64,000 nucleotides of DNA from Nitrospiraceae bacterium (GTDB lineage Bacteria; Nitrospirota; Thermodesulfovibrionia; UBA6902). Below are positions 31,584-33,765 of this stretch, one piece after another. Location of the stretch: the NCBI GenBank assembly GCA_003599275.1, contig QZJG01000004.1, positions 87-64,086 of the forward strand. Direction: 5' to 3'. Position 1 is the first letter of the stretch. Each line of letters starts with the position of its first letter. The position numbers and the translations under genes are program-made. The notes beneath the pieces were generated by a model that was not told the origin of the DNA, ran no database searches, and was given only the letters and a program-made list of their open reading frames with translations.

Positions 31584-32999
31584 TTATTTCCGTCTTCGGG
31601 CCGCTAACTTCCCCGCAAGCTCAAGGGCCTCTTCACGGCCCCGGATTTTTCCTGCATCCTGTGCATTCCTTATCTCCCCGAGTATGCGACCCATGTCAGG
31701 GCCCGGCATCATGCCGAGGGCTATCAGGTCTTTGCCTGAGACAAAGTCGGGACTTTCAATCTCCATTTTCGTTTTTTCAAAATATTCTCTCACCGTCTGC
31801 TGAGACCATTTAATGTGGCTCTCCCTGATGCTCGCGCTCGAATTGGGACCCAGGCTGCTCATTGTGTCAGCCATGCCCAGGATGAATACCGCGATTGCAT
31901 CATCTCCAGTCTTGCGGAACCATTTCGTTCTGATGTCCGCTTTAACATCCTCCGAGGCAAGATTAAATACCTGCAAATGCTCTTCCGTCAAAAGGACCAT
32001 GAAATCCCTGTCGCGTTTAGACATCTTCAGTCTTTCCGAAATCAGGCCCATGAGTTTTGCCCCCTCTTCGGCATGGCTGTAAAACGTGGTCCGTCCCGTA
32101 TCGGAATTTACATTCTTTGTAGCGGGCTTCCCTGCGTCATGAAACAAGGCAGACAGTTTTAAAAGAGACAACCGGCTGTTTCCTTTGAGATAGTCTGCTG
32201 TCCGGGCGCTCCATTCGCCGAAATAGTCGGAGAGATTATTGATAATGTGTTCGGTATGCTCCATTGTCAGCAAAGAATGCTCCCATACGTCCGTGTGATG
32301 AAACCCGTTCTGAGTGCAGACTTTCATCATGTGAATTTCGGGAAAGATGACCTCAAGGATGCCGAGATCGTCCATCTGTCTGAAATACCGGGCGCTCCGG
32401 GGAGTTTCCAGTATGCGCCGCAGCTCCGCCGTGACGCGTTCCGCTGCAACATCCTTAAGCATGGCCGCCCTGCTTCCCATCTCTTTCAGAGTCTGTTCTT
32501 CGATGGCAAAATCCAGGCCGGCAGAGAGGCGCACGGCACGCAATATTCTCAGCGGGTCTGATAAGATGGACTCGTCACCGGCCAATCTGATTATCTTTCT
32601 TTCAATGTCCGCCGCTCCATTCAACGGGTCAATAACCACTCCGGCAGAGCTACCATCCTTTACCCCGATGGCAATCGCATTAATTGTGAAATCACGCCGG
32701 CTGAGGTCCTCATATATGGTATCGCCCCGCATCTCGGCAATGTCCAGATAATTTTCACTGTCTTCCCTGTCAACGACCCGGTAGCATGGCTCGTCTGGCT
32801 TTTTCTCCATAGGGACAAAAGCGGCTTTCCTGCATTGTGCAAGGTTTTGAGCAAACACCTTAGCGTCCCTGCAGACAAGATCGATGTCCCTGGGGGAACA
32901 ATCAAGCAGTAAATCCCGGACCGTCCCTCCCACAAGATACAACTCCGGGATGTTAATGTCTTTGCAGCTCAGCCAGTTGTTGAGTGAAACGGTCTGCAT
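31584..32999 (-). CDS. CCA-adding tRNA nucleotidyltransferase / poly(A) polymerase family protein with HD domain
   Basis: LVGGTVRDLLL, RDFTINA and HD-domain residues (LFHDAGK). Its stop lies 8 bp from the convergent GT4 stop. Confidence 0.82.
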   Translation of the reverse strand: MQTVSLNNWLSCKDINIPELYLVGGTVRDLLLDCSPRDIDLVCRDAKVFAQNLAQCRKAAFVPMEKKPDEPCYRVVDREDSENYLDIAEMRGDTIYEDLSRRDFTINAIAIGVKDGSSAGVVIDPLNGAADIERKIIRLAGDESILSDPLRILRAVRLSAGLDFAIEEQTLKEMGSRAAMLKDVAAERVTAELRRILETPRSARYFRQMDDLGILEVIFPEIHMMKVCTQNGFHHTDVWEHSLLTMEHTEHIINNLSDYFGEWSARTADYLKGNSRLSLLKLSALFHDAGKPATKNVNSDTGRTTFYSHAEEGAKLMGLISERLKMSKRDRDFMVLLTEEHLQVFNLASEDVKADIRTKWFRKTGDDAIAVFILGMADTMSSLGPNSSASIRESHIKWSQQTVREYFEKTKMEIESPDFVSGKDLIALGMMPGPDMGRILGEIRNAQDAGKIRGREEALELAGKLAARRRK

Positions 33000-33050
33000 A
33001 TTGAATAATAGTTTAGCACAAGGGTCATTGCCTTCAGACCGGCAATAAAT

Positions 33051-33551
33051 CTATAAAATCTCCTTCAACTTCTGCCTCAGCCTCTCCGTGTGAGTGCCCC
33101 TCCAGTAAAACTTCCTGCAGGCCGGACATTGCCTGAATCTGTCCGAAGTGAGATAGACGTATTCGGGCACATGCTCCTTCGCCTGCTCTTTCGGGACCTC
33201 TTCGAGGGGTGTATTGCAGAGAGAACATCTGCTGTAGATGGGATACAAAGGGACACATCCCATATTTCCATTTGAAAATATGGGATGTGTCCCCAACAGG
33301 TCCAACAGGTCAAACGTTTTGATGACCTTTCTTAGCTGCTCAAAGGTATCGTTCTCGTGCAACAAAAGATAACGTCTTAATCCCCTCATCCTTACAAGGC
33401 GGGTATCTCTCGTGAGGAGGGTCCTGTCTTCCTCACCCGCTATCCGGACAAGACGCCTGTCTTCGATATCGGGCCAATAAAGCGTGTCGCAGCCTAACAG
33501 TCTCAACCATCTTGCAAGGCGGCCCAGCATCGAATCGGCAATGAACTTCAT
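33051..33551 (-). CDS. Mut7-C RNase domain (DUF82) protein with C-terminal zinc ribbon
   Basis: FIADSMLGRLARWLRLLGCDTLY is a PIN-like N-domain. RCSLCN...CPACRKFYWRGTH is a zinc ribbon. The gene contains an in-frame hairpin insert. Confidence 0.75.
   Translation of the reverse strand: MKFIADSMLGRLARWLRLLGCDTLYWPDIEDRRLVRIAGEEDRTLLTRDTRLVRMRGLRRYLLLHENDTFEQLRKVIKTFDLLDLLGTHPIFSNGNMGCVPLYPIYSRCSLCNTPLEEVPKEQAKEHVPEYVYLTSDRFRQCPACRKFYWRGTHTERLRQKLKEIL
33250..33293. repeat. Perfect 18-bp inverted repeat embedded in frame in the Mut7-C gene
   Basis: GGGACACATCCCATATTT (33250-33267), 8-nt loop, AAATATGGGATGTGTCCC (33276-33293). It encodes GTHPIFSNGNMGCVP. It is directly followed by the tandem 9-bp repeat CAACAGGTC x2 (33294-33311), which encodes DLLDLL. 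Confidence 0.85.
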
Positions 33552-33589
33552 TTAAAACCTCAAACAGAATGAACAAAAAAAGCATTTAG

Positions 33590-33717
33590 CCACAGATTAA
33601 CGCAGATTAGCACAGATTTATTAAACACTTAATCGGCTTTTTTCTTTCACCTATTGGGTGAATAAATAATTGTACCTATCTTATTTATATCATTGTTTTT
33701 ATCTGTGAAATCTGTGG
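33590..33717. repeat. 128-bp MITE-like intergenic element with 9-bp terminal inverted repeats and CACAGAT sub-repeats
   Basis: CCACAGATT (33590-33598) pairs with AATCTGTGG (33709-33717). The left end has three tandem (C)ACAGATT units; the right end reads ATCTGTGAAATCTGTGG. Confidence 0.5.
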
Positions 33718-33765
33718 ATACAACTGCCGTTTTCAGGTTAAAGCCCACACGGAGAAAGACCATTC

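Follow-up and report, generated by a model that had tools for sequence, protein, structure and literature searches.

An in-frame palindrome in a Mut7-C gene of Thermodesulfovibrionia and its probable origin from a transposase-associated repeat

How does a perfect 18-bp hairpin come to lie in frame inside an intact protein-coding gene? The question is raised by a Mut7-C (DUF82) RNase-like gene in the window, which is the whole 64,000-nucleotide stretch analyzed here (Nitrospiraceae bacterium, assembly GCA_003599275.1, contig QZJG01000004.1). The hairpin occupies positions 33250-33293 and abuts a 9-bp tandem duplication. Its arm is a dispersed repeat, designated REP-A, (G)GGGACACATCCCATATTT(T), and inverted copies of REP-A bracket a Y1 transposase gene in related genomes. 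Because the arm is dispersed and associated with a transposase in this way, we propose that the hairpin is very probably a REPIN-like dimer of the end repeat of a Y1 transposase. The repeat would belong to the repetitive extragenic palindrome/REP-associated tyrosine transposase (REP/RAYT) type in its terminal inverted repeat (TIR/TIRYT) variant and is read in frame by the host gene. The features of the locus are as follows.

33051..33551, minus strand: Mut7-C (DUF82) RNase-like gene, an open reading frame of 166 aa (Pfam PF01927, E 4.9e-42) that hosts the insert
33250..33293, no strand assigned: REP-A dimer (REPIN-like hairpin), two inverted GGGACACATCCCATATTT units 8 nt apart, whose coding strand encodes GTHPIFSNGNMGCV(P)
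33250..33267, plus strand: left arm in plus coordinates, the 3' arm of the coding strand, encoding NMGCVP
33276..33293, minus strand: right arm in plus coordinates, the 5' arm of the coding strand, (G)GGGACACATCCCATATTT, encoding GTHPIF
33294..33311, abutting the hairpin: 9-bp tandem duplication CAACAGGTC x2, on the coding strand GACCTGTTG x2, encoding DLLDLL
33232..33249, minus strand: linker codons (L-Y-P-I-Y-S) that separate the hairpin from the zinc ribbon, placed by a DNA alignment of linkers

The hairpin arm as a dispersed, transposase-associated repeat

The arms GGGACACATCCCATATTT (33250-33267) and AAATATGGGATGTGTCCC (33276-33293) are complementary at 18 of 18 positions and enclose the 8-nt loop CCATTTGA (33268-33275), and they grow to 21 nt at 95% when the repeat search allows one mismatch. 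The hairpin and the duplication lie wholly inside the minus-strand Mut7-C reading frame, where the region encodes ...FDLLDLLGTHPIFSNGNMGCVPLYPIYSRC... and the coding strand translates around the insert as ...FDL LDL L GTHPIFSNGNMGCVP LYPIYSRC.... Sequence, reading frame and Pfam match agree on the original prediction, made from the letters of the window, of a perfect 18-bp hairpin with an 8-nt loop and a 9-bp duplication in frame in a Mut7-C gene. That such a palindrome exceeds chance, as was also claimed, is borne out by numbers. By our own arithmetic, the chance of a perfect 18-bp stem with a loop of 3-12 nt is about 1e-5 in 64 kb, and the arm pattern with up to three mismatches is expected 0.1 times in the window. 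The entire 3.05-Mb genome contains 38 perfect hairpins with a stem of at least 14 bp. Only two of the 38 are located deep inside long open reading frames, namely the Mut7-C hairpin and a sister copy in a kinase gene. As RNA, the hairpin region folds at -38.4 kcal/mol (z = -7.0 against shuffles). The REP-A core is free of stop codons in all six frames, and the whole 44-bp element is open in five of the six.

A genome search for the repeat unit, which the original prediction had suggested, directly reveals a repeat family. Besides the Mut7-C copy, the arm recurs on contigs C3, C13, C21 and C29, so that this genome (G000) holds three hairpin dimers and two single units of REP-A:

C3:84139-84197: REP-A dimer, a 25-bp perfect hairpin in frame in a gene for a 1545-aa Ser/Thr-kinase/AAA/GAF protein, encoding KNRDTSHFGETKMGCVPIF; the longest perfect hairpin of the genome
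C13:45301-45337: REP-A hairpin variant, GGGACACATCCCGATT..AATCGGGATGTGTCCC, intergenic and just downstream of a gene
C21:75-92 and C29:4395-4412: REP-A single units

The kinase site on C3 is empty in 11 homologues from a protein database search (64-83% identity), which are without exactly the 12 extra residues; the search for kinase orthologues within the genus as empty sites returned no orthologue, just paralogues at 29-30%. Across the order, the 14-mer GGGACACATCCCAT is present in 27 of 64 genomes and 12 of 35 genera, with 1-12 copies per genome, and the reversed control of the 14-mer pattern gave no match in the 64 genomes. The 27 genomes with an arm of 14-18 nt span five families. Inverted REP-A dimers number about 14 across the order by our own count; those inspected outside this genome are intergenic with loops of ~20-36 nt, and intragenic copies are exceptional. 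REP-A copies start with (A/G)GGGACAC and have A/T-rich flanks. The motif GGGGWSAS (PMC3733652) fits GGGGACAC in ~40% of the copies by our own count. The fitting copies include both of those that flank the transposase gene of locus L102, as well as the right arm of the Mut7-C hairpin (the 5' arm of the coding strand) with its preceding G.

What moves such a repeat? Inverted REP-A copies 620-780 bp apart directly bracket an open reading frame of 224-233 aa in five genomes, G047 (L100), G049 (L102), G006 (L114), G026 (L131) and G013 (L136). The two bracketed frames that were scanned match Pfam Y1_Tnp at E 1e-18 to 1e-19 (66.7 and 71 bits, cut-off 23), and HUH (NHVHLL) and YIEQNP motifs were seen by eye in the translations. 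In this genome, contig C21 opens with the last 19 codons of the transposase (MENKFQRRFFLKSPGRPRK, 79% identical) followed by the REP-A unit at 75-92; judged from this fragment, the partner is apparently present here and broken by assembly. The claim of an in-frame entry by a small palindromic mobile or repeat element into the linker, which joins the PIN-like domain to the CxxC zinc ribbon, is sustained by the dispersal of the arm and its tie to a Y1 transposase. This genome also holds a second Y1 transposase-like gene at C74:2989-3621, which is 31% identical to the REP-A-associated one. It was rejected as a partner of REP-A or REP-B, a second dispersed repeat described below, as neither repeat is present in the flanks read (~290 bp on one side and 330 bp on the other).

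The protein linker as a possible landing site

What does the insert contribute to the Mut7-C protein? The protein consists of a PIN-like domain (residues ~1-87), a linker and a CxxC...CxxC zinc ribbon (~108-150), and its PF01927 match is split into two stretches, the first of which ends at residue 82 (Pfam). The 1041 homologues retrieved are 150-183 aa long. In a 22-sequence alignment of homologues, the catalytic and cysteine columns are invariant, and the acidic and cysteine residues are intact in the window protein; the sole unconserved part is the linker, between F80-x-L82 and R108-C109. The AlphaFold2 model has a mean pLDDT (predicted local distance difference test score) of 78, and the peptide encoded by the repeat (residues 88-92 and 94-105) falls below 50 and is flanked by the well-modelled PIN-like domain and zinc ribbon. 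This peptide is predicted to be a disordered loop that joins two folded domains.

The occupancy of the linker was read directly from the DNA of 80 orthologous Mut7-C loci (L, locus; WIN, window copy). REP-A also occupies this linker position in two further species of the genus, as a 22-bp perfect hairpin in L007 (GGGACACATCCCATTTTTTTTG aat ...) and a 23-bp perfect hairpin in L008 (AGGGACACATCCCATATTTTCTG ata ...). In a fourth relative, L137 (P0004; 853-900), the 5' REP-A arm is intact and the 3' arm has diverged at ~10 of 22 positions, an asymmetric decay. The apical stem sequences differ, with arms reading ..CATATTTTC.. in this genome and L008 and ..CATTTTTTTTG in L007. The REP-A copies that flank the G047 transposase read ..CCCATATTTTC.. 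and ..CCCATTTTTG.., respectively, and by this comparison the two arm types appear to resemble two different ends of the transposase unit.

Other palindromes occupy the site elsewhere, namely GGGCGGGG aaa CCCCGCCC in L009, GGGCGGGTT tga AACCCGCCC in L010, and the variant GTAGAGACAGGTT tga AACCTGTCTCTAC in L016 and L023, which is present in 1-3 copies in its two genomes. Several further homologues known as proteins alone (e.g. P0007, P0008 and P0011) encode at the linker site the GGFET-type peptide that matches the palindrome of L009 and L010. This palindrome, REP-B, with the consensus GTAGGGGCGGGTTTGAAACCCGCCCCTAC, is itself a dispersed GTAG-type REP with 1-30 copies each in this genome and in seven of the eight related genomes searched; L019 has only the right-arm-like half of the REP-B palindrome. 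Distant orthologues have short linkers, e.g. FNLKDFSLMSRC, without the inserted peptide and with no hairpin above chance. The alignment with DUF82 orthologues proposed in the original prediction thus yields the expected absence of the segment from distant ones, and the same peptide was not found encoded by non-palindromic codons in distant taxa. A hairpin kept across the whole Mut7-C family was considered and rejected: a perfect linker stem of at least 8 bp occurs in 7 of 40 orthologues, whereas the stems of the others (5-9 bp) are no longer than expected by chance and almost always lie in other parts of the gene.

The linker DNA alignment has a common backbone, TTTAACCTG ... CTACAGCAGATG. In L007 and L008, CGCCTCTAC on the 3' side of the hairpin can be aligned to the terminal part of the REP-B right arm, and the linker end in the window, ...CTACAGC (33232..33249), aligns with the REP-B right-arm end CCCGCCCCTAC of other orthologues. 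These alignments suggest that REP-B was there first and that REP-A later landed in it, partly replacing it. The REP-A arm (..ACATCCCATATTT.., HPIF) resembles the linker codons (..CATCCATTTGA.., HPF) of L010, L016 and L023, which are without REP-A; this likeness could be microhomology at the insertion site or coincidence. Most forks of the gene tree (144 columns) are open. WIN, L007, L009 and L010 group at SH-aLRT 92, with L008 just outside. The tree is too weak to count REP-A insertions and is compatible with one origin.

Taken as a REPIN-like dimer, the hairpin would be a non-autonomous element whose two inverted units correspond to the sequences on either side of a Y1 (HUH) tyrosine transposase gene that is single-copy in relatives. 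By analogy with IS200/IS605 elements and the Escherichia coli TnpA-REP system, the transposase would recognize and cut the folded single-stranded repeat and move or copy it without a target duplication. REP-A would then have landed in the Mut7-C linker where relatives hold the older GTAG-type REP. The insert would survive because it keeps the frame, is free of stops in that frame and lengthens a disordered loop by ~15 residues, so that the protein probably tolerates the insert rather than uses it.

The 9-bp duplication has a different history. On the coding strand, the sequence 5' of the hairpin is TTT GAC CTG TTG GAC CTG TTG | GGG ACA in this genome, TTT AAC CTG TTA | GGG ACA in L008, TTT GAT CTG | GGG ACA in L007 and TTC AAT TTA | GGG ACA in L137. 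The duplicated unit is therefore present as a single copy in L008 (CTGTTA) and as less than that in L007 (CTG) and L137. Because these three relatives share the insert without the duplication, the duplication is lineage-specific and postdates the insertion. Y1 (IS200/IS605-type) transposition makes no target duplication. A target-site duplication was rejected, as the repeat is tandem on one side rather than flanking and is absent from L007, L008 and L137; the suggestion that the duplication is an insertion scar is not supported, on the same grounds. In L008, an independent 9-bp tandem duplication (TCGCCTCTC TCGCCTCTA, encoding RLS RLY) lies just 3' of the hairpin on the coding strand, on the opposite side from the one in the window. 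Two separate in-frame 9-bp duplications abutting REP-A hairpins point to slippage promoted by the hairpin, and the window duplication is best read as later replication slippage beside the hairpin that added three residues.

Core identity and rival explanations

Several observations weigh against a REPIN-like dimer. The full transposase gene is unassembled in this genome (88.6% complete). The best NCBIfam model for the two scanned transposases, REP_Tyr_transpos, scores 72.7 and 78.5 bits, just under its cut-off of 80, and a PDB sequence search with the REP-A-associated transposase matched no chain. REP-A copies are few, at three dimers and two single units where classical REPINs number tens to hundreds, and the copies inspected have no GTAG or CGTC tag at their ends. 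Mobility of the REP-A family is deduced from sites that are filled in some relatives and empty in others. The insert is also not a pure addition, as the DNA alignment shows some linker sequence to be replaced relative to REP-B-bearing orthologues. A further difficulty lies in the core. Outside the linker, the Mut7-C genes of WIN, L007 and L008 share 72-76% nucleotide identity and 48-58% identity at third codon positions, but the three species agree at all 28 of 28 positions of the 2 x 14-nt core and each stem is perfect. Such core identity despite third-position divergence means that simple neutral descent from one old insertion is insufficient. Renewal by the transposase, gene conversion, repeated site-specific insertion, template-switch correction of the palindrome or selection on the hairpin could possibly account for it. 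The decayed arm of L137 indicates that maintenance of the palindrome is not universal. An extended proposal, which we regard as unlikely yet worth stating, is that the Mut7-C linker serves as a constant landing site, with active renewal or replacement of small hairpin repeats instead of the passive inheritance of one old insertion. REP-A would there have displaced, in one sublineage, the GTAG-type REP that many relatives have. If this is true, the locus would document in nature how REPIN-like elements at one orthologous position are maintained by a transposase or by gene conversion, and the hairpin might in addition have been co-opted to tune the expression of the Mut7-C and CCA-adding-enzyme pair.

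The main alternative, supported by the apparent covariation at one site, is that the hairpin is a selected cis-acting structure of the gene or operon whose palindromy is kept by selection on pairing. In the mRNA it could mark a point of pausing, attenuation or RNase entry that precedes the zinc-ribbon codons and the following CCA-adding-enzyme gene, or it could be an autoregulatory target of Mut7-C. The strong fold (z = -7) is in keeping with such a role, as are the terminator-like stem and tail flagged on the coding strand by a terminator scan and the perfect preservation of the core though synonymous sites are near saturation. In addition, the different perfect palindromes at one linker position (REP-A in WIN, L007 and L008; others in L010, L016 and L023) look like covariation. 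However, each of these palindromes is a dispersed repeat of its own genome that is also found at unrelated loci, most same-clade orthologues have no above-chance hairpin at the site, and one arm has decayed in L137. The T-rich tail is weak (TTTGTATCCC) and confined to this species, with TCGCCTC following the stem in L007 and L008, and the G+C-rich stem and U tract of an intrinsic (rho-independent) terminator were not found conserved in orthologues. No family of Rfam 15 was reached, with only generic miRNA-model hairpin matches at 19-24 bits against cut-offs of 45-100. A selected structure is thus quite improbable as an explanation of the hairpin.

An in-frame cassette of repeat, transposase and repeat could have left the dimer as its scar after deletion of the transposase between the repeats, and the units of the dimer are indeed precisely the inverted pair found on both sides of the transposase elsewhere. 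This origin is very unlikely: all 80 retrieved Mut7-C loci have gene matches of normal length (~405-520 nt) and none has a cassette, within a protein search that is blind to much longer hosts, and the REP-A-adjacent transposases of L100 and L102 each start and stop at codons of their own, with the L100 copy lying between genes. Alternatively, template switching (snap-back synthesis) could have turned native linker codons into a palindrome on the spot, its likeness to other copies being secondary. The arm (..CATCCCATATTT.., HPIF) is similar to ancestral linker codons (..CATCCATTTGA.., HPF), L019 has the right-arm-like half of REP-B alone, and the apical stem sequences, which vary from species to species, pair perfectly within every species, as quasi-palindrome correction would give. 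Such a process does not account for an arm that recurs in 27 genomes of five families, brackets a transposase gene and, in this genome, also lies in an unrelated kinase gene at a position left empty by the homologues. On this evidence we give an origin in place a slender chance, and the templated hairpin insertion offered in the original prediction is not upheld; once the element is in place, however, template switching may contribute to the perfect match of its arms. A fold-back or chimeric read is the least credible source, with a very low probability. Library or assembly errors can create palindromes, but the open reading frame is intact and three metagenome-derived sequences of other species carry the element at the same site. 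An identical 1301 bp also occurs on a 114.7-kb contig of a JGI metagenome record, which possibly derives from the same underlying assembly as the window.

Known systems and other repeats read in frame

A REPIN-like dimer of REP-A has its closest counterparts in the REP/REPIN-RAYT systems, including TIRtron/TIRYT (Nunvar 2010; Bertels & Rainey 2011, PMC3116915; Di Nocera et al. 2013, PMC3733652), with which it shares dispersed single units and inverted hairpin dimers. Y1 transposases flanked by REPs or TIRs form REPtrons or TIRtrons, many TIRs share the motif GGGGWSAS, and TIR repeats also form dimers (Di Nocera et al. 2013, PMC3733652). Similarly, a Y1/HUH transposase that is mostly single-copy lies between inverted REP-A copies, the pair has persisted throughout an entire bacterial order, and the REP-A end GGGGACAC fits the TIRYT motif. 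Unlike REP/RAYT repeats, REP-A is present in 1-12 copies per genome and lacks a GTAG/CGTC tag, a single unit is barely palindromic (only GGGA/TCCC), and the copy studied here is intragenic. The associated transposase is 224-233 aa long and scores just below the NCBIfam RAYT cut-off.

Palindromes that are translated have precedents. In-frame intragenic REPs and REP dimers that encode 20-30 residues are known from several phyla (PMC3733652), and Rickettsia palindromic elements (RPEs) are inserted in frame in open reading frames (Ogata 2000, as summarized in PMC3733652 and PMC10969869). The Mut7-C element resembles both in that a palindrome is read through in frame, the gene stays intact and ~15-30 extra residues are placed where the fold tolerates them. 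It differs from RPEs, which are ~100-150 bp long and Rickettsia-specific, in being 44 bp long, unrelated in sequence and hosted by Nitrospirota; it is RPE-like in its working and not a member. It differs from the published intragenic REPs, which are GTAG/CGTC-tagged and come from other phyla, in its host, a Thermodesulfovibrionia (Nitrospirota) metagenome-assembled genome, and in the occurrence of different repeat families per species at one linker site. Quasi-palindrome template-switch mutagenesis (Ripley model) is a mutational process and not an element. It would explain perfect stems despite differing apical sequences and small tandem duplications beside the hairpin, but it cannot explain the dispersed copies or the transposase link.

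This genome repeatedly reads palindromes through in frame. In addition to the Mut7-C and kinase genes, REP-B is read in frame inside the NTP_transferase domain of a fusion enzyme (C45:2817-2835, SGFETRPY), inside the MmeI_C domain of an MmeI-type enzyme (C41:8625-8643, GAGFKPAPT) and near the C-terminus of a type III methylase on C27 (VGAGLKPAPT), 70 codons before the stop. In-frame hairpin repeats are already known, and what is particular here is a low-copy, untagged, TIRYT-like family conserved across an order of Thermodesulfovibrionia. It is also unusual that different repeats have followed one another at a single linker site. An odd palindrome is thereby explained as ordinary selfish repeat DNA with an identifiable transposase partner, and its annotation as a regulatory RNA or frameshift site can be avoided. 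The pair, which is not mentioned in the literature searched, adds an order-wide, low-copy repeat and transposase from Nitrospirota to the REP/RAYT-TIRYT collection. Moreover, the series at the linker site, with REP-A perfect in three species and decayed in a fourth and a different REP in others, is a potential test case for the long-term perfection of REPIN-like sequences.

A gene for a 471-aa CCA-adding-enzyme/poly(A)-polymerase-like protein (PolyA_pol, PolyA_pol_RNAbd and HD domains) lies 51 bp downstream of the Mut7-C gene in the same direction (the two genes together span window positions 31584-33551), and the two may constitute an RNA-processing pair. The spacer upstream of the Mut7-C gene (33585-33722) has another dispersed repeat, which consists of three (C/G)ACAGATT units at 10-nt spacing (CCACAGATTAACGCAGATTAGCACAGATTTATTAAACACTTAATC...) and an inverted ATCTGTGAAATCTGTGGAT ~100 nt further on. 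A regular expression for this spacer repeat gave 24 matches, against none for the reversed control, and its long consensus is common to ~17 loci of the genome by our own count. On C27, the type III-like methylase reading frame (C27:21888-24222) holds a complete in-frame DUF559 endonuclease-like module (Pfam E 3.7e-36). On either side of it lie stretches that encode PAPLLKERGEE and PSPSGEGAGGEV and are suspected to be another repeat.

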